A stretch of 64,000 bases of DNA, taken from a virus. Numbering within the stretch: position 1 is the first letter of the stretch; the number at the start of each line of letters is the position of its first letter. Where the stretch lies: IMG/VR virus record IMGVR_UViG_3300042691_027609; one strand, 5' to 3'. The position numbers and the translations under genes were made by a program. Positions 2,964-61,242 of this stretch are shown one piece after another. A model generated the notes under the pieces. It saw only the letters and a list, made by a program, of their open reading frames with translations. It had not been told where the DNA came from and did not search any database.

Positions 2964-3194
2964 ATGATGGATAAAGTACAAACAAATACAAGCGAGTCGA
3001 TAGACTTATCACTCACAGAAAAAATAGAGACTAATCAAGAAAAACACATTTATACCGCTATAGAATCCAAACTAATTGAAACTCCAAAACCAAAGATGAG
3101 TATCGAAGAAAAGACAAACATACTCAATCAACTCAAATCACATGATTTATCTGATGCGACAAGAAACGCATTGATTAAAATGTTAAGCGAATAA
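2964..3194 (+). CDS. Hypothetical protein
   Basis: Abutting ORF in operon. Confidence 0.65.
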   Translation: MMDKVQTNTSESIDLSLTEKIETNQEKHIYTAIESKLIETPKPKMSIEEKTNILNQLKSHDLSDATRNALIKMLSE

Positions 3195-3197
3195 GTT

Positions 3198-3461
3198 ATG
3201 ACTGCATTAAAGATAGAATACGAAGTTTACTTACAAGAACTTCTCGAGAGATCTGCGCGATACTCATACGATGAAGACGGGCACATAGTCGCTGTAGTAC
3301 ACTTGATAACAAACCCACCGCTAAATTATTTGGATTGGTTAGACACCGAAATGCAAGACGCAATAGACCAAGAAGATTACGAGTATGCCGCAAAAATAAG
3401 AGACGAGATTATCTACTTGAAACTTTACACCGTAGAAGAATTTGAAAGGTATTTGGCTTAG
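3198..3461 (+). CDS. UvrB/UvrC (UVR) coiled-coil motif protein
   Basis: MQDAIDQEDYEYAAKIRDEI matches the UVR consensus. Confidence 0.75.
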   Translation: MTALKIEYEVYLQELLERSARYSYDEDGHIVAVVHLITNPPLNYLDWLDTEMQDAIDQEDYEYAAKIRDEIIYLKLYTVEEFERYLA

Positions 3462-7387: not shown

Positions 7388-7584
7388 AACTAATATTAAA
7401 GACCAAACACATAGAACTGGAATACGCAGACGACTACTCTATGTTAGAAGCCCAAGCAAAAGACAGAATAGAGAGCCTGATCAAAACGATGTACGAGTAC
7501 GAAGCCAAAGCAAGCCCGATGGCGATACACCATGCGCCCGTAATAGGAACAGTAGAAGAGATATTCTGCAACAAAACAAAATAA
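7384..7584 (+). CDS. Hypothetical protein (start re-called at ATG 7384)
   Basis: ATGA overlap with upstream stop and GTTATG context. Confidence 0.65.
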   Translation: MKLILKTKHIELEYADDYSMLEAQAKDRIESLIKTMYEYEAKASPMAIHHAPVIGTVEEIFCNKTK

Positions 7585-7585
7585 C

Positions 7586-7661
7586 TGCCATTTTGTCACG
7601 AGCAGAGAAAAACTGACAACACGTACCGAAATCTTGACACAACGTCATATCGAATATGTCA
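7586..7661. promoter_or_regulatory. Array of imperfect TGACA-N3-TGTCA palindromes (putative operators)
   Basis: TGCCA-TTT-TGTCA (7586), TGACA-ACA-CGTAC (7614), TGACA-CAA-CGTCA (7635), half-site TGTCA (7657). Confidence 0.45.
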
Positions 7662-7965
7662 CGATAACACATAACAACAGCGCTGCATACAACCCGCCGC
7701 CATTTGATGCCCGCGTCTCGCACCACCCACACCCGTACACGGGACACCATGGATCTCCGTATTTCCATATTAAGATTGTCAATAATGCATAACCGATTGA
7801 AGTTCGGAAGCCACAATCCAAGCCTGTCCCTAACTGCTTGGTTCTCAATCAAGAATTTTTAAAAAAAGTCTATAAATATTTTTTAGTGTCAAAAAGTCGT
7901 CGTATATTTACCTTATATCAATCAAACAGCTGCTAAAACAGCTTAACAGTTAAAAAAAACATAAT

Positions 7966-8856
7966 ATGAACAAAAACATTATCCTCGCCGCTCTTCAATC
8001 CCAGTTAGAAACAGTTAAAGCTGCAGCTATCAGCCACGAAGAGAACGTCTTCAATCCCGCTGTTGAGAAGCTTAAAGCCAAGATAGCTGAGTGGTTCCAC
8101 AACAACGTTATCACTGGGCTTCACGACATCGAGATCTCTTCTGAGCGTTTGACTATTACGCCTAACGATACTACCGCTTACGGATCTACTATCACTATCG
8201 ATTATAGATCTAACTGGAGAGGAGAGAATGGTTATTTTGAAACGTCTTGTTACCGTCCCGATCTAAAGTCTAACCAGGACAATTCTGAGACTGTGTTTTA
8301 TTTCAACGCTATGGCTGCAATTGCAACCAAATTCAGTGGCATCTGCGATAAGTTCAAAAGCAGTTGGTTGCCAGCTTACAGCAAATTGGCCGCTGCCAAG
8401 TCTGAGAAGTACGATGGGATCTACAATATAGAGAGAGAAATACGTACGTGCGAGGCTGAGATTGCTGTGCTAGAGAAAGAGATCTACAACCAGTCTGGCT
8501 TTGAGTTGACGTTGAAGCCGTATACAAATTACGACTCTAACTACGATAACGGCGAATGCGTATACACCAAGAAGCAAGACGAACACCACATCAGGGCTTA
8601 CTACGGTCGTAGCAAATGGGATTACGCTTACATCAATTCGTTCAAGGTTGTCAGCTTCCCTAAAGCCAAACACGGCAAAGTCGTATTAGAGTGGAAAGGC
8701 GGATCTGATGATACCAAGACTCGTACGGTTGAATTGAACAAAACACGTTACGCAGAGTTCATCAACGACGTATACGCTTGGGAAACCAAAGGCGCTGCTA
8801 GCAGAGAAGAAGACGTAAACGAAAGAGTAGCGAGATATAACAAAGTAGACGCCTAA
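7966..8856 (+). CDS. Hypothetical early protein
   Basis: 296-aa ORF after promoter motif; codon usage rich in AAC/ATC/TTC/GCT. Confidence 0.85.
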   Translation: MNKNIILAALQSQLETVKAAAISHEENVFNPAVEKLKAKIAEWFHNNVITGLHDIEISSERLTITPNDTTAYGSTITIDYRSNWRGENGYFETSCYRPDLKSNQDNSETVFYFNAMAAIATKFSGICDKFKSSWLPAYSKLAAAKSEKYDGIYNIEREIRTCEAEIAVLEKEIYNQSGFELTLKPYTNYDSNYDNGECVYTKKQDEHHIRAYYGRSKWDYAYINSFKVVSFPKAKHGKVVLEWKGGSDDTKTRTVELNKTRYAEFINDVYAWETKGAASREEDVNERVARYNKVDA

Positions 8857-8900
8857 TCCCATTCCATATTAAACATTAATCAAATATAAAAATAAAAGTT

Positions 8901-9374
8901 ATGTATCTAGTAAAAAACATTATCAACGCAATCCAGACCAGTAACTACTCTGAAATGTCAGAGAGCGAGATCAAAGTATTAGTAAAGAAAGCCAAGCGCG
9001 ACTACGGCACCACGAACAACACTCTTCGCAGGCTGTGCAATCACGGAGTGCTACGCAGAGACGTAGGCGTGTGTAAGAGCAGCAAACGTCCAAGTTGGTT
9101 GTACAAAATGGACATGAGCGAAGAGAGCGTGATCGAGTACATCGCCCGCAAAGAAGAGCAACAGGCCAAGTACAAGAATCGCGGTAAGCTGTTTGACTTC
9201 GGAGAGGAGTTCGGCATCAGCACCCATTTCGGAGACCGTCCGCTTGTTATCGGCCACGGACTTGCACCCGAACACCTTGAAGGCAAGTGCCTGATCGTGT
9301 CTGCCGATTTCGAGATGAGTATCACCGAAAACAGAAACGGCAGTCAGATGCTAACTTTCAAGAGAAAGCATTAA
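8901..9374 (+). CDS. Putative winged-helix DNA-binding protein
   Basis: TTNNTLRRLCNHGVLRR...KRPSWLY resembles a wHTH recognition helix plus wing. Confidence 0.55.
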   Translation: MYLVKNIINAIQTSNYSEMSESEIKVLVKKAKRDYGTTNNTLRRLCNHGVLRRDVGVCKSSKRPSWLYKMDMSEESVIEYIARKEEQQAKYKNRGKLFDFGEEFGISTHFGDRPLVIGHGLAPEHLEGKCLIVSADFEMSITENRNGSQMLTFKRKH

Positions 9375-9444
9375 TACCGAAAAGTTAATCTTTACCCTAT
9401 AGAACTAATCACGTAAATTTAATAATAATAAAACAATAAAAGTT

Positions 9445-10266
9445 ATGTCAACAAAAGCAACAGCATTCAAAGCCGGATCTATCAACACGATTTCTAGAGC
9501 AGTAGCAAAAGAGCAGGCGCCAGCCATCTTCGCAACCAAGCCTGCCGATTACATCAACCTAAACAGGTACCACTTCACACCAACCTTCGAGATCATAGAC
9601 ATGATGGAGGATATGGGCTACATGTTAACAGGAGCCAAGCAGAGCAAGACCAAGATACCTCTGCGCCGCGACCACGGTGTGCATATCGTAGAGTTTCAAC
9701 ACCCCGATCTGTACGTAAAGGACTCCGCTACAAACGAAGTAGAAGCCAGACCAACCATCGTATTGGTTAACTCATCTGACGGTAGTAGGCCAATCGACTT
9801 TCAAATGGGTATGTTCCGATTGGTATGTAGTAACGGTCTGATCGTTAAAGACAAAGACTTGGGAGGATTCAAAGAGAGACACACCAAGTTCAAGTTCCAA
9901 GAGATCAAGGATCTGATAGCAAGCAAGGTAGACATGTTGCCTAAGACCATAGAGAAGATAAACAAATGGAACGGTATAGAGATGGATGCCAAAGCCAGAC
10001 ACGCCTTCGCAGTAGAAGCATTAGCACTGCGTCTGAGTTCGGACAGACAACCCGAAACATACGAGATCCACGAGATCCTGAACCCACGCCGTAAGGAAGA
10101 CCAAGCTCACAACCTCTGGTGCACGTACAACGTTATCCAAGAGAACCTGATCAAGGGCGGCTTCCAAATGAATGAGAGGTCTGCTAGGCCCATCACCAAC
10201 CCTTGGCAAGACTTACAGCTGAACAAATCCCTCTGGGAGATGGCTGAGAAGTACGAGAACGCGTAA
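9445..10266 (+). CDS. DUF932-family protein
   Basis: APAIFA, RYHFTPT, LVNSSDGS, GMFRLVCSNGL, RRKED...LWCTYNVIQENLIKGG. Confidence 0.9.
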   Translation: MSTKATAFKAGSINTISRAVAKEQAPAIFATKPADYINLNRYHFTPTFEIIDMMEDMGYMLTGAKQSKTKIPLRRDHGVHIVEFQHPDLYVKDSATNEVEARPTIVLVNSSDGSRPIDFQMGMFRLVCSNGLIVKDKDLGGFKERHTKFKFQEIKDLIASKVDMLPKTIEKINKWNGIEMDAKARHAFAVEALALRLSSDRQPETYEIHEILNPRRKEDQAHNLWCTYNVIQENLIKGGFQMNERSARPITNPWQDLQLNKSLWEMAEKYENA

Positions 10267-10469
10267 GCGCGTCGGTTAAGACTCACTCACTAGTCGGTCG
10301 TTAGCGTCTCTCTACTGAGGCGCTAGCACCTAGCTAGCAACCCTTTAGCTCCCCGCCAAAGTGATAATATTCGTAGCTAGCGCTTTTGATAGGGGGCCCC
10401 TGGGGGTTAGCTGATCCCACACACAAGGAAATTTTCAAACTTAGTCAAAAAAATATTTACGTAAATACA

Positions 10470-10709
10470 ATGATTGATATGAAAAAACTAATGGCAATCT
10501 GTGTACTCGCTTTGGTCGGCTGTTACAACGATCCGCAGTCAACGAGCATGGAAGGCAACGGTGTCAAAGTAGAGCTGCTGTTTGTCAAAGACAGCATCAG
10601 AGTCTATCGCTTCTCCGACGGAGGGCGCTATCACTACTTCACCGATCGGTTGGAGACCATCAGCACAGCGAACGAAGGCAAGACACAAATAGACGAAAAC
10701 ATAAAATAA
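10470..10709 (+). CDS. DUF4884-like lipoprotein (start re-called at 10470 or 10479)
   Basis: Lipobox LVGC; VELLFVKDSIRVYRFSDGGRYHYFT. Confidence 0.7.
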   Translation: MIDMKKLMAICVLALVGCYNDPQSTSMEGNGVKVELLFVKDSIRVYRFSDGGRYHYFTDRLETISTANEGKTQIDENIK

Positions 10710-10715
10710 AACAAC

Positions 10716-10934
10716 ATGATAATCAAATTAACAACCATTGAAAACGAGCCGATACTTATCGGTACTGAAAGCATCATTGATATTAAGAATACTGCCATCA
10801 ACTACCCTGATAGTAAGGTTAAGGTAGTATGCGCAAAGATACAAAGCAGAGGTGCTATGGTACAAACAAACTATGTAAAAGAAACAGTCGAAGTAATCTT
10901 CGATATTATAAACAACCAAAATAAAACAGCATGA
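10716..10934 (+). CDS. FlbD/SwrD-like small protein
   Basis: MIIKLTTIENEPILIGTESI...YVKETVEVIFDII. Confidence 0.55.
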   Translation: MIIKLTTIENEPILIGTESIIDIKNTAINYPDSKVKVVCAKIQSRGAMVQTNYVKETVEVIFDIINNQNKTA

Positions 10935-11317
10935 AAAAAGCAGTAAACGAATTTTTGGACCTAGTAGAGGACGCACAAGACAGGATCATCGGGTTGGCAA
11001 ACGATTTGAACGCCAACAGTCACCGGGTCGAGTGGAGCATCGAGGACGAGGGCGATGGCGAGTTGAAGTTTAGGTGCCGTGTTCAGTGTACGTTTGGTCG
11101 CTTCGACAACTACCACTGCGGCAGCTACGTCAGCCTCAATCACCCGTTCGAAGAGGCCGAAGAGAGCATCCGCGAGATGCACTCCAAGTGGGCAGCAGAT
11201 AATGATCGCTACGAACGCAAGCGAGAAGAGGAAGAGATCAAACAGCGTCTGTACGACGAGTACCTGCAGGCGAACTCACGTAAAACCCCAACCCAGCTTT
11301 CGAGTACTACGGACTAA
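10931..11317 (+). CDS. Hypothetical protein
   Basis: ATGA-coupled ORF. Confidence 0.7.
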   Translation: MKKAVNEFLDLVEDAQDRIIGLANDLNANSHRVEWSIEDEGDGELKFRCRVQCTFGRFDNYHCGSYVSLNHPFEEAEESIREMHSKWAADNDRYERKREEEEIKQRLYDEYLQANSRKTPTQLSSTTD

Positions 11318-11394
11318 ATTGCGGTCGGGGACACGGGGAAGTTTTTCTTCTCCATCAGAAAGTAAATACGTATATTTAACTAAACAAACAAGTT

Positions 11395-11631
11395 ATGCAA
11401 GCAGAATTTATCCAAGAAGAACGCATCGACGGCACTGTCGTCTACTACACGCGTGTTGATGGTTACTACGTATCGGACTCTCTCAGCTTTCACCGGGATC
11501 GGGCCGAACAGTACTACGCTCGCATCGTGGCAGAGAGATCTAATACGCCAAAACAAACGGTACTCCAATCGCACCAGTTCGCACAGGGTTCAGCGGAGCC
11601 TGCGGACCTAACGGTTGCATCGGCAGATTGA
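11395..11631 (+). CDS. Hypothetical protein
   Basis: Promoter motif at 11370 and AAGTTATG start. Confidence 0.7.
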   Translation: MQAEFIQEERIDGTVVYYTRVDGYYVSDSLSFHRDRAEQYYARIVAERSNTPKQTVLQSHQFAQGSAEPADLTVASAD

Positions 11632-11680
11632 TTACGATGTGTCCTGTGAGTCACACTTTCACAAATTAGTTTTCGGTACT

Positions 11681-11749
11681 AGTCAGGTAGCTTAATTGGT
11701 AAAGCGGTTGCGCGAGTTTCCGTTACCGGTTCGAATCCGGTTCTGACTA
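11681..11749 (+). tRNA. tRNA-like gene with degenerate anticodon arm (isotype undetermined)
   Basis: Acceptor AGTCAGG/TCTGACT, D arm GCTT-AATTGGTA-AAGC, T arm ACCGG-TTCGAAT-CCGGT; only 19 nt between D and T arms, no 5-bp anticodon stem. Confidence 0.75.
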
Positions 11750-11754
11750 CAGAC

Positions 11755-11909
11755 TTTCACCTATGGCTGCACAGAGATCTGGTGAAACCCGTTAGGAGCT
11801 GCAGACTCATTGAACGGGGGCGTAGGCAACATTAACCTACAACGGTAGAGTGCCTTTAACCGGGTAAATTGGCGCCGCAAGCGACCAAGTGACCGTGGAA
11901 ATCTCTACC
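11755..11909 (+). ncRNA. Candidate structured ncRNA between the two tRNA-like genes
   Basis: Consecutive stems TTTCACC/GGTGAAA, CCCGTT/AACGGG, GTAGG/CCTAC, GGTAGAG/CTCTACC. Confidence 0.55.
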
Positions 11910-11914
11910 AACAC

Positions 11915-12018
11915 AGTCAGGTGGCGGAATGGTAGACGCTGCTAATCGGATATAGCAATTGGGACCGATCCTCCAACCGCGGAGTGCCCAAATAAAGGTT
12001 CGAATCCTTTCCTGACTA
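11915..12018 (+). tRNA. tRNA-like gene (Leu-type D arm) with 8-nt anticodon loop and oversized variable arm
   Basis: Acceptor AGTCAGG/CCTGACT, GGCGGAATGGTAGACGC, stem TGCTA/TAGCA around ATCGGATA, 33-nt extra arm, T arm AAAGG-TTCGAAT-CCTTT. Confidence 0.75.
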
Positions 12019-12181
12019 CAAAAAATAAAAGTTATGATAAACAGTGCATTTGAATTTACGTGGTCCGAACTGCTTAACTGCAAAATATACGTGTCGCTAA
12101 ACTAGGCTGGATGCTGACAAGCGATATATACGAATATACGTGGGGGGCGGCACGAATCCTAAATCCATTAAAATTTAACAC

Positions 12182-12304
12182 ATGAAAAGAAAATTTGAAG
12201 ACGCGTTTTACTTCTTTACTATATGGTTTGCCACTTCGATGATAGTCTTGTGGGTTATCGCAATTATTTGTAAATTAGTAATATCTATCAAGGAATCCAT
12301 TTAA
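12182..12304 (+). CDS. 40-aa single-TM peptide (not in ORF track)
   Basis: MKRKFEDAFYFFTIWFATSMIVLWVIAIICKLVISIKESI. Confidence 0.55.
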   Translation: MKRKFEDAFYFFTIWFATSMIVLWVIAIICKLVISIKESI

Positions 12305-12322
12305 ACAATCAAAATAAAAGTT

Positions 12323-12520
12323 ATGAACAACAATTACGATGCGTGCCGATCTGTGCACCAACTTGCAGGCTGTTACGAGGCGTTAACTGAGCTAGCTGTG
12401 ACTTATCTAAAGATAGGACCTGCGGAAAAGCGAGAGTTTTTTGCTAACTACTTGGAAGAGCGACTCGCTCAACTCAAAGAAGACTACAACACTATCTATA
12501 ACGTTAAAAAATCCAAGTAA
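12323..12520 (+). CDS. Hypothetical protein
   Basis: AAATAAAAGTTATG start context. Confidence 0.7.
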   Translation: MNNNYDACRSVHQLAGCYEALTELAVTYLKIGPAEKREFFANYLEERLAQLKEDYNTIYNVKKSK

Positions 12521-59331: not shown

Positions 59332-61242
59332 ATGGCAGATCAACAACAACAAAAACAGAATAACTTATTTTCTACATTAAGAAGACTTTTTTCTACCGAC
59401 GTTATTATAAGAAATAATGGAGACGGTGCTCTTAAAGTAGTCGACGTAGATAGAATTCAAAACAATGGTGTTATTCAAACAAACGCTCTTGTAGATAGAT
59501 TTCATAAAATTTATACGACTTCTACCGCGTATGGAGTTAATCTTAACTTAGCACAAAACTACCAATCAGCCAGGATTCAAATTTATGCTGATTATGACGC
59601 TATGGATACAGATGCGATAGTATCTTCGGCTTTAGATATTATAGCTGACGAATGTACGCTTAAAAACGAACAGGGAGAAGTATTACAGATCAGATCTTCT
59701 GATGAAGCAATACAGAAAATACTTTACAACTTATTTTATTCTGTTCTAAATATAGAATTTACTCTTTGGTCATGGATTAGAAATATGTGTAAGTATGGAG
59801 ATTTCTATCTTAAGATGGAGATAGCCGATAAATATGGAGTGTACAATGTGATACCATTTTCTGCTTACAATATAATTAGACAAGAGGGATTCAACCCTAA
59901 CAATCCAAACGAAGTTAGATTCAAATACGATCCACTTGGAGCTCTAGGAACAACCTCAGGATTTAGCTCTGCTTACAACAACGAAGATCCAGGAATCTAT
60001 TTTGATAATTACGAAATGGCTCATTTTAGATTAACTGGAGATGTTAACTATTTACCGTACGGAAGATCTTATCTAGAACCAGGCAGAAAGTTATTTAAGC
60101 AGTACACTCTTATAGAAGATGCGATGCTGATCCATCGTATCACTCGTGCCCCAGAGAGAAGAACATTTTATGTGAATGTAGGAGCAATACCTCCAAACGA
60201 AGTAGAAAATTACATGCAGAGAATGATCAATAAGATGAAAAAAACTCCTCTTATAGATCCTAATACAGGTCAGTACAATCTAAAATACAACCAACAAAAT
60301 CTACTCGAAGATTTCTTTATCCCAGTCCGTGGCAACGATACTACAACAAAGATAGACACTGCAAAAGGTTTGGAATATAATGCTATTGAAGACGTACAGT
60401 ATTTTAGAGAGAAGCTTTTCGCAGCTCTAAAAATACCAAAAGCTTTCATGGGATACGAAAAGGATTTGACTGGTAAAGCCACATTAGCTGCAGAAGATAT
60501 TCGTTTTGCAAGAACAATAGAAAGAATACAGAGAATTATAGTTTCCGAATTAACTAAAGTTGCGCTAGTTCATTTATATGCTCATGGATATACAAACGAA
60601 TCAGCAGCTAATTTTACTCTCTCATTAACGAACCCTTCGATTATTTACGAACAAGAAAGAATCGCACTCTTCAAAGAAAAAGTTGCATTAGCGAAAGACG
60701 CTATGGAAGCAAACTTATTACCTAAAGATTTTATCTACGATAAGATATTCCAATTCTCTGAAGATCAATATGCTGAATTAGAAGATATGATCATTGAAGA
60801 TAAGAAAAAAGGGTTTAGAATAAAACAGATCGAAGAAGAAGGTAACGATCCAGCTGAAACAGGCCAAGTGTTTGGTACGCCTCATCAATTAGCTAGTTTG
60901 TACGGAGGAAAAGGGGATTCACCCGTGGACATTCCAACAGGCTATGATGAAACCGTAGAAAAAGGACCAGGAAGACCTAAAAAATACCAATCAAAAATTG
61001 GCACCGATGCGTCAGCTTTTGGAAGAGATCCTCTTGGTAAAAACGATATGAAATCAGCAACAGATCAAGGAGAAAATGATAAACTAAAGGTTCAATATAA
61101 AGGCGGACCTCTAGCTTACGAAGGCGCAATGGGAGAATATATAAAAAATAAACAAATGCTCGATCAGTTTGGAAGATCAACTAAAATGTACAATCAACCA
61201 AATCTTTTAAGTGAAGACAATATAAAAACTGATCTAGATTAA
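59332..61242 (+). CDS. Portal protein (T4 gp20-like)
   Basis: EDAMLIHRITRAPERRTFYVNVG, EDFFIPVRG, DVQYFREKLFAALKIP. Confidence 0.95.
   Translation: MADQQQQKQNNLFSTLRRLFSTDVIIRNNGDGALKVVDVDRIQNNGVIQTNALVDRFHKIYTTSTAYGVNLNLAQNYQSARIQIYADYDAMDTDAIVSSALDIIADECTLKNEQGEVLQIRSSDEAIQKILYNLFYSVLNIEFTLWSWIRNMCKYGDFYLKMEIADKYGVYNVIPFSAYNIIRQEGFNPNNPNEVRFKYDPLGALGTTSGFSSAYNNEDPGIYFDNYEMAHFRLTGDVNYLPYGRSYLEPGRKLFKQYTLIEDAMLIHRITRAPERRTFYVNVGAIPPNEVENYMQRMINKMKKTPLIDPNTGQYNLKYNQQNLLEDFFIPVRGNDTTTKIDTAKGLEYNAIEDVQYFREKLFAALKIPKAFMGYEKDLTGKATLAAEDIRFARTIERIQRIIVSELTKVALVHLYAHGYTNESAANFTLSLTNPSIIYEQERIALFKEKVALAKDAMEANLLPKDFIYDKIFQFSEDQYAELEDMIIEDKKKGFRIKQIEEEGNDPAETGQVFGTPHQLASLYGGKGDSPVDIPTGYDETVEKGPGRPKKYQSKIGTDASAFGRDPLGKNDMKSATDQGENDKLKVQYKGGPLAYEGAMGEYIKNKQMLDQFGRSTKMYNQPNLLSEDNIKTDLD

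Follow-up and report, generated by a model that had tools for sequence, protein, structure and literature searches.

Two predicted tRNA-framed RNA genes of a freshwater T4-like phage and the large RNA family to which their sequences assign them

The locus and its two genes

The window, that is, the whole 64-kb stretch of DNA that was analysed, is a contig of an uncultured, freshwater, T4-like phage, with a T4-type portal gene at 59332-61242, a baseplate J gene and many small ORFs on the + strand. Its DNA was found in around 20 metagenome runs (freshwater, lake and river) from 17 studies. The window is A+T-rich except for an island at 8-12 kb with a G+C content of 0.445-0.48, and a pair of tRNA-framed genes sits at the 3' edge of this island. 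The features are given below, where RF00005 is the Rfam tRNA model, with a threshold of 29 bits, and R1 is a covariance model built from 15 members of the family presented in the next section, none of them from the window.

9445-10266: DUF932 gene, inside the G+C-rich island
11681..11749, + strand: copy 1, a predicted 69-nt tRNA-framed RNA of a short-middle subfamily (RF00005 45.4 bits; R1 45.3 bits)
Parts of copy 1: acceptor 11681-87 with 11742-48; D arm 11690-11705; middle hairpin 11706-11721 with loop GCGA; GUU 11722-24; T arm 11725-41; A73 11749; C74 11750
11750..11914, + strand: G+C-rich spacer of 165 nt between the two frames, candidate separate structured RNA
11915..12018, + strand: copy 2, a predicted 104-nt RNA with a tRNA-Leu-like frame (RF00005 40.3 bits; R1 69.6 bits)
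Parts of copy 2: 5' frame 11915-11939; first hairpin 11940-57 (8-nt loop); long arm 11959-91; U48 11993; T arm 11994-12010; acceptor 3' strand 12011-17; A73 12018; C74 12019
11935..11995, + strand: exchangeable middle of copy 2, swapped out in a related strain

An earlier note, made from the sequence of this DNA alone, had pointed to two tRNA-like RNAs with nearly the same acceptor stem and remodelled anticodon arms, and most of its structural description holds. Both copies start with AGTCAGG and end with TCTGACT-A-CA (copy 1) or CCTGACT-A-CA (copy 2), and both contain canonical D and T arms, with wholly paired T stems (ACCGG/CCGGT and AAAGG/CCTTT, each one compensating pair away from the family consensus ACAGG/CCUGU), a T loop UUCGAAU on a 5-bp stem, U48 and A15. 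Neither has a normal anticodon arm: the alignments to RF00005 span the full model and jump over the region in between by local ends that skip 12 nt in copy 1 and 49 nt in copy 2, and ARAGORN reports 0 genes. The 5-bp anticodon stem with its 7-nt loop (U33, the anticodon and a purine at 37) is absent from both, the loops being of 4 nt in copy 1 and 8 nt in copy 2.

With regard to copy 1, the count of 19 nt between the D and T arms (11706-11724) is correct, but these are not almost unpaired, as was first thought, since they contain a hairpin formed by G26-C41, G27-C40, two U.U oppositions, G30.U37 and C31-G36 and capped by GCGA. The same hairpin is part of the cloverleaf-like structure predicted for copy 1 by RNAfold. 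The D arm of this copy is class I and not Leu-like.

The first 25 nt of copy 2 are identical to the family consensus and correspond to the upper body of a class II tRNA-Leu, with a 3-bp D stem, G13.A22, AAUGGUAGA and A15; the Leu-type D arm reads GUGGCGGAAUGGUAGACGC, and U48 precedes the T stem. The 8-nt loop and the 33-nt extra arm already described for this copy were both recovered, the former in a hairpin at 11940-11957 (TGCTA / ATCGGATA / TAGCA) and the latter at 11959-11991, with an outer helix TTGGG/CCCAA and an inner helix CTCC/GGAG. Copy 2 is therefore like class II tRNA-Leu in its 3-bp D stem with G13.A22, its AAU(U)GGUAGA D loop, A15-U48, A73 and the long extra arm, and differs from it in the first pair, which is A1-U72, and in the lack of a 7-nt loop with a Leu anticodon (NAG or YAA), the loop reading AUCGGAUA instead. 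The family as a whole departs further from tRNA-Leu, with middles ranging from about 20 to more than 120 nt.

The unusual middles are not sequencing errors, since contigs from independent metagenomes match the window with 0 differences: runs X4 and X5 both contain copy 1, and X5 also contains copy 2 from position 11929 onward.

No third or partial copy was found in the window, and both ARAGORN and Rfam fail to call any real tRNA in the 64 kb, whereas most other family members sit in tRNA arrays. A position in or beside a tRNA cluster is a usual but not a defining trait of the family, and the pair in the window does not have it. The only further Rfam match in the window at E <= 1 was to the microRNA precursor MIR169_2, on the other strand and below threshold, and was taken as chance. 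A promoter and terminator scan of 11300-12400 returned nothing on the + strand, and blastn of the same region against 50,697 phage records gave no match. Regarding the neighbouring genes, no relative was found for the 78-aa ORF upstream of the pair, the 72-aa gene downstream has 291 relatives without synteny and without an element nearby, and none of the ORFs tested, small neighbouring ones and eight larger ones of the window, was recognised as a tRNA-processing enzyme.

A constant frame shared by a large family

The extent of the family was revealed by a scan of IMG/VR with a pattern made of the T loop and the acceptor 3' strand (GGTTCGAATCCNNTYCTGACTA), which matched at least 120 viral loci, many of them with 2-6 copies, and yielded 146 distinct elements of 52-182 nt. 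As this first scan fixed the 3' half, its conservation is partly imposed, while the 5' half was left free. Upstream of almost every match, and separated from it by 20 to more than 120 unrelated letters, lies AGTCAGG-T-G-GCGG-AAT(T)GGTAGACGC, so that the un-imposed 5' end common to the family reads, as RNA, AGTCAGG-U-G-GCGG-AAU(U)GGUAGACGC. The seven positions of the 5' acceptor strand are nearly invariant among the 146 elements (A141 G146 U146 C134 A144 G145 G141), and the elbow positions U48 and A15 are present in 122 and 121 of them, respectively. The frame runs in the order AGTCAGG, D arm, middle, T arm, YCTGACT and A73, and conservation falls steeply at its borders.

A family of non-decoding tRNA mimics had been proposed in the earlier note, together with a covariance model as a means of checking it. 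The window-free model R1 picks up both copies, copy 2 with 69.6 bits (E 1.4e-15) and copy 1 with 45.3 bits (E 2.6e-9), as compared with at most 37.3 bits for the ordinary tRNAs of the phages T4, T5, pT24 and Gundel_1. Judged by these sequence comparisons, the two genes belong to a large family of tRNA-framed small RNAs in phages. The proposal stands as far as a very large family and the membership of both copies are concerned; that these real, selected members do not decode we infer as almost certain. ARAGORN assigns '???' or scattered anticodons to family members. Most members are located inside phage tRNA arrays, whole phage records carry four to about ten clustered copies, and tandem members with short gaps are common in other loci.

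The family appears to be confined to uncultured material among the collections searched. In prokaryotic genomes, with one genome per species and 185,579 species, the pattern was found in 19 stretches, all of them on contigs of metagenome-assembled genomes (MAGs); 18 of these are family members with inconsistent taxon labels, many of them Bacteroidota, and the remaining one is a real tRNA-Leu(UAG) with the acceptor GGUCAGA/UCUGACU-A. No family member was found in isolate genomes and cultured phages, and blastn against the 50,697 phage records returned no full member. The 'tRNA-Undet' genes of Tenacibaculum phage pT24 were considered as cultured members and rejected, as they are analogous but score like ordinary tRNAs with R1. 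Exact scans with the T arm and acceptor of copy 1 gave nothing in viral or metagenome contigs, and those with the T arm and acceptor of copy 2 gave one contig only, from an unrelated phage. Furthermore, in three runs the frame halves were covered by reads 10 to more than 100 times as deeply as the flanks, an excess explained by the many other elements in the same samples that share these halves.

The flanks of the members are tRNA-like. C74 follows the discriminator in 148 of 151 members and in 214 of 216 real tRNAs from the same loci, CAA and CUA tails are found alike in members and in these real tRNAs, and CCA is seldom encoded. On the 5' side, position -1 is mostly U, which is enriched, and position -2 mostly A. 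U(-1) is the base preferred by bacterial RNase P.

DUF932 is the commonest neighbour of family members, being present at 15 of 139 family loci and at none of 176 controls. Its candidacy as a partner protein was rejected after a reverse test, in which DUF932 genes proved to be general companions of phage tRNA clusters (30 of 80 loci against 13 of 80). A predicted model of DUF932 (pLDDT 75.5) had no PDB match by Foldseek, no solved relative was found by sequence, and nothing on the function of DUF932 was found in the literature at title and abstract level.

Variable middles, a strain-level swap and the spacer

In contrast to the frame, the middles are highly diverse. The 135 distinct middles fall into 117 clusters, 104 of which are singletons, and no k-mer or motif is common to them. 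Members of the few small clusters differ from one another by compensating changes, which argues that the middles are folded RNAs under selection. No Rfam family besides tRNA was found in the middles of 17 loci, and a search of the window for antisense targets of the middles and the spacer gave matches at chance level only. The middle of copy 2 has a single exact 16-mer match elsewhere in viral contigs, in a context that is not tRNA-like. The constant frame with its exchangeable middles, which is the main feature of these genes, had not been foreseen in the earlier note.

Copy 1 represents a subfamily of its own, as its middle, GGUUGCG(CG/AU)AGUUUCCGUU, is present at 16 or more viral loci in 7 distinct sequences. 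When these 7 distinct homologues are aligned with the window, pairing extends to 99.4% of cells, and two acceptor pairs and three T-stem pairs, 5 in all, are changed on both sides. Of 500 shuffled alignments, 3 attained this count of changed pairs and none attained the covariation score or the share of paired cells, while in slid controls that share drops to 36-52%. The frame is thus kept through compensating changes. The hairpin stem, conversely, is invariant in the 7 distinct homologues, and the 16-nt hairpin varies at two loop bases only, so that this middle is constrained in its sequence and not in its fold alone. One locus retains the middle of copy 1 on the acceptor AGUAGGG/CUCUACU. A free exchange of middles does not fit copy 1, whose middle is just 16 nt long and invariant in sequence.

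For copy 2, an exchange can be observed directly. A 562-nt contig from DNA run X9 contains window positions 11579-11934 with 6 differences, followed by 27 other letters and by positions 11996-12174 with 3 differences; it is the same locus in a related strain, in which the 61-nt middle of copy 2 has been replaced. The frame pieces shared at the swap, of 20 and 23 nt, are shorter than the assembler word, which we take to be 31 letters, and a false join across a repeat is therefore unlikely. A swap between strains suggests a fast turnover of middles, as in counter-defence genes.

These results bear on the simplest alternative, namely that the two genes are decaying tRNA pseudogenes, or that copy 2 does decode, through a four-base anticodon in its 8-nt loop. 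The rejection of both copies by ARAGORN would agree with such a reading, and tRNAs that suppress +1 frameshifts classically have an 8-nt anticodon loop. Decay, which the earlier note had already argued against and which would have left random changes across all arms of the homologues, is contradicted by the covariation described above: the frame is conserved with compensating changes over hundreds of elements, and identical sequences were retrieved from independent samples. With regard to decoding, the related strain has 27 unrelated letters for the whole arm, the base 3' of the four-base anticodon in the 8-nt loop is U and not a purine, and the anticodons that ARAGORN assigns to members are scattered. 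Both forms of this explanation are hence highly improbable.

The position of the swap, exactly between the frame halves, together with the steep drop in conservation at the frame borders, could also indicate that the halves matter mainly as DNA, as recombination or homing targets or as homology arms, and that the RNA products have little function. Genes with a T5orf172 domain, a GIY-YIG-type putative homing nuclease, are found in 9 of the 139 family loci, and homing endonucleases are present in the tRNA clusters of T4, T5 and Gundel_1. Nevertheless, the compensating changes in acceptor and T stem and the kept tertiary positions of the D and T loops show selection on RNA folding, compensating changes are also seen in the middles, and the 5' and 3' flanks of tRNA type are kept, making an explanation at the DNA level improbable.

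A third product of the locus may be the spacer. In X20, the one RNA run in which any of the region was detected, the sole contig (168 nt, 100% identical) corresponds to 11766-11933, that is, the spacer and the first 19 nt of copy 2, and covers nothing else within 11300-12400, with the ORFs on both sides left without cover. Beyond these 19 nt, no frame is covered by RNA. This run holds a small share of the words of the region and counts for one contig, not for habitat or expression level, and the contig shows neither RNA ends nor amounts. Moreover, G11791A and C11815U occur jointly in a strain contig from X4; the two positions pair with each other (42:66) in helix 2 of the predicted spacer fold, and the other two substitutions of the contig fall at unpaired spacer positions. 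Given the X20 contig and this paired change, it is likely that the spacer forms a third, structured RNA, transcribed together with copy 2.

Among the roles listed in the earlier note was that of processing signals which free the RNA in between, and the spacer contig and the one compensating change hint in that direction. Taken further, the frames could be chiefly punctuation, where RNase P and 3' enzymes would release the 165-nt spacer RNA as the functional product. The spacer is the sole part of 11300-12400 seen in X20, apart from 19 nt of copy 2, a compensating change occurs at 11791/11815, and closely spaced tandem members are common at other loci. However, the spacer does not fold significantly better than shuffles (z -1.26), neither a homologue in 2.46 Mb of loci nor an Rfam match was found for it, and its single RNA contig could stem from DNA carry-over. 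As such an arrangement would, in addition, leave the conserved, structured middles and the family-wide frame unexplained, we give it little credence.

Possible roles and known counterparts

The reading that we favour, with a probability of about 0.6, is that the frame is a handle for maturation and stability and the middle is the working, exchangeable part. The acceptor stem, the D and T arms and A73 would adopt the fold of a tRNA's upper body and elbow, the 5' end would be cut by RNase P, and the 3' end would be trimmed and CCA added, as for the real tRNAs of the phage. The tRNA-like frame might then shield the transcript from decay, with the codon-reading arm replaced by another folded RNA module that would carry the function. 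Swapping of middles would probably be aided by recombination between the two conserved frame halves. In the window, processing of both frames would also release the 165-nt RNA between them.

The acceptor is closer to invariance than the shape requirements of RNase P and the CCA enzyme would demand, which implies either a sequence-specific partner or homogenisation at the DNA level. These two reasons, the latter with the halves as recombination arms for middle swaps, may apply together. A sequence-specific partner would be in keeping with a different division of labour, in which the frame is the working part, acting through the acceptor end and elbow, and the middle merely tunes or addresses it; examples would be charging with leucine by the host leucyl-tRNA synthetase (LeuRS), or titration of a tRNA-binding host factor, toxin or defence protein. 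Copy 2 has A73, U8, A14, A15-U48, G18G19 and a class II D arm with G13.A22 like tRNA-Leu. In bacterial LeuRS, A73 and the tertiary nucleotides of the D loop are crucial, and removing the anticodon stem-loop entirely, which is tolerated, costs a 2.5-fold loss of affinity (PMC2377443). The Leu-type frame provides A73, the tertiary bases of the D loop and a regular acceptor helix, as required by bacterial LeuRS. Leucine charging is for this reason a live rival, and a role of the Leu-type frame as an aminoacyl donor or synthetase ligand, both suggested in the earlier note, is possible. Against the frame as the working part, the middles are structured and conserved within subfamilies and hence do not look like filler, the D arm of copy 1 is class I and not Leu-like, and the real tRNA-Leu genes of the carrier phages have other acceptor stems, so that we regard it as rather unlikely. 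The further suggestion of a decoy for anticodon nucleases is also unlikely, as there is no anticodon loop to cut.

Returning to the middle as the working part, the family might constitute a natural 'RNA display' in phages of freshwater bacteria, with an invariant tRNA frame carrying hundreds of structured RNAs that are swapped at the frame halves and serve as fast-evolving effectors against the host. This extension is possible, and we put it forward tentatively; the effectors could be, for instance, aptamer-like decoys or inhibitors of host defence or RNA-binding proteins. If true, it would amount to a new, RNA-based class of accessory genes in phages. Should the middles be effectors, they would make up a large natural reservoir, as yet untapped, of functional small RNAs, and the frame would offer a ready expression chassis in Bacteroidota.

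A mechanistic parallel is provided by the engineered tRNA scaffold of Ponchon and Dardel, in which an arbitrary structured insert replaces the anticodon stem-loop and the product is precisely processed, modified and stable in E. coli (PMC3753655). The acceptor, T and D arms are kept in this scaffold (PMC3753655), and the phage frame is built like this RNA-stabilising tool of engineers. The scaffold is, however, man-made, with human tRNA-Lys3 or E. coli tRNA-Met frames, and it informs the mechanism by analogy rather than being a relative.

Several natural RNAs combine a tRNA-like part with another domain. Transfer-messenger RNA (tmRNA) is also a tRNA mimic with a large domain in place of the anticodon arm, but the copies have U3-A70 and not G3.U70 and no tag reading frame, and no tmRNA match was found in the window. 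YrlA, a bacterial Y RNA-like RNA, has a tRNA-like module fused to another domain. The ends of YrlA RNA lie in the Ro-binding stem and not in an acceptor stem, and the YrlA model (RF02553) gave 15.7 bits on the window, against a threshold of 69, with an E of 4.7 and a match to the D arm only. The TMERs of murid gammaherpesvirus 68 are viral tRNA-like RNAs that remain uncharged and act as processing handles for attached small RNAs. They are polymerase III transcripts of a eukaryotic virus and carry the small RNA downstream of the tRNA-like part rather than within it. The skipping-rope, DUF2693-FD and salivarius-1 tRNA mimics of a 2026 preprint are other RNAs.

The closest published analogues are RNA1 and RNA2 of phage T5 and rnaC and rnaD of phage T4, which are not sequence relatives. 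Like the copies in the window, they are phage-encoded, with a tRNA-like acceptor and T arm and no decoding arm. T5 RNA1 and RNA2 (NC_005859 30501-30644 and 32959-33083) are annotated as 'tRNA-like stable RNA with unknown functions', and RNA1 has a tRNA-like acceptor and T arm, a Leu-like D arm (GCCGGAAUUGGUAGACGG) and a large insert at the site of the anticodon arm. The acceptor and T-arm sequences of the two nevertheless differ from those of the family, with R1 scores of 13.5 and 21.6 bits (RNA1 reaches 24 bits with RF00005), and each is a single gene within the tRNA cluster of a coliphage, unlike the multi-copy invariant frame with its many middles. Similarly, T4 rnaC (species 1) and rnaD (species 2) are small stable phage RNAs that end a tRNA cluster, and rnaC has a terminal T arm (CCGGGUUCGAAUCCCGG), an acceptor-like helix and an A-CAA tail as in the window. 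On the other hand, rnaC is weakly tRNA-like (17.5 bits with the tRNA-Sec model, 24.5 bits with R1) and lacks a clear D arm, and rnaC and rnaD occur in one copy each, with no exchangeable middle known.

The AGTCAGG-frame family itself was not found described in the literature or RNA databases searched. At the locus in the window, the replacement of the middle of copy 2 in the related strain, the subfamily of copy 1 with its invariant 16-nt hairpin, and the spacer with its RNA contig and compensating change are new. RNAs of the T4 rnaC/rnaD and T5 RNA1/RNA2 type have been known for decades, and the family shows that this kind is neither rare nor a relic, being abundant in freshwater phage metagenomes and under clear selection at the RNA level. 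As tRNA finders miss these genes or assign random anticodons to them, analyses of phage tRNAs and codon usage are distorted.

Surroundings of the tRNA-like pair

The two tRNA-like RNAs of the window lie at the end of an island (8000-12000) in which the G+C content reaches 0.445-0.48, against 0.30-0.37 in the rest of the phage, and which contains a DUF932 gene together with several ORFs without family matches. This island may be a recent acquisition. The stretch between both tRNA frames (11750-11914) looks like a separate RNA and is a candidate as such. It was the sole portion of the region 11300-12400 recovered in an RNA library, its variation among strains includes one compensating change (11791/11815), and the loops of both its first and second predicted hairpins carry GCUGCA.

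Directly 3' of the second copy (11915-12018) lies an A-rich motif, CAAAAAATAAAAGTTATG (12019-12036), which is also found in many related loci of freshwater phages, there directly 5' of the point where a gene begins, with the following examples:
near 2488-2512 in L159, L162, L165 and L172: recurrence of CAAAAAATAAAAGTTATG
The motif is probably a promoter or translation-start signal common to these phage loci. Among the loci carrying family members, GTATATTTG-like words are enriched in the 60 nt upstream of about one tenth of the elements. These words are compatible with TAnnTTTG, the Bacteroidota -7 promoter box, which is in line with the taxon labels of the member-bearing MAG contigs, many of them Bacteroidota.

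DUF932 genes beside phage tRNA clusters

The DUF932 gene of the island is the following:
9445-10266, + strand: DUF932 (PF06067) gene
DUF932 genes tend to lie no more than about 2 kb from phage tRNA clusters, an observation placed at this gene of the window, at L002, L016, L020, L045, L054, L098-L100, L103, L110 and L138, and at L321-L400. DUF932 was present in 15 of the 139 family loci and in none of the 176 control loci; in the reverse count, a tRNA-shaped gene was found within 3 kb in 30 of 80 DUF932 loci, compared with 13 of 80 controls. Two loci, L002 and L099, have the start of a family member at most 10 nt from the DUF932 stop codon. Comparison of the DUF932 AlphaFold model (pLDDT 75.5) with the PDB gave no match.

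Analogous RNAs and a possible origin of the frame

RNAs analogous to the family are present in a cultured Bacteroidota phage, Tenacibaculum phage pT24 (LC168164; L140):
2790-2868 and 3157-3235: two near-identical genes with the annotation 'tRNA-Undet'
Their acceptor, D and T arms are normal, while a long hairpin replaces the anticodon arm, and the adjoining 'tRNA-Pro' has the T arm of the family. A real tRNA was found in an Anaeroplasmataceae MAG (L129):
7400-7485: tRNA-Leu(UAG), CCA encoded
Since its acceptor (GGUCAGA/UCUGACU-A) resembles the family frame, sequence likeness hints that the frame derived from a tRNA-Leu lineage.

On a further contig with family members (L010), a phage tmRNA match (49.2 bits) adjoins a group I intron match (97.8 bits) at 7609-8193 on the minus strand, a candidate for a tmRNA gene that may be interrupted by an intron.
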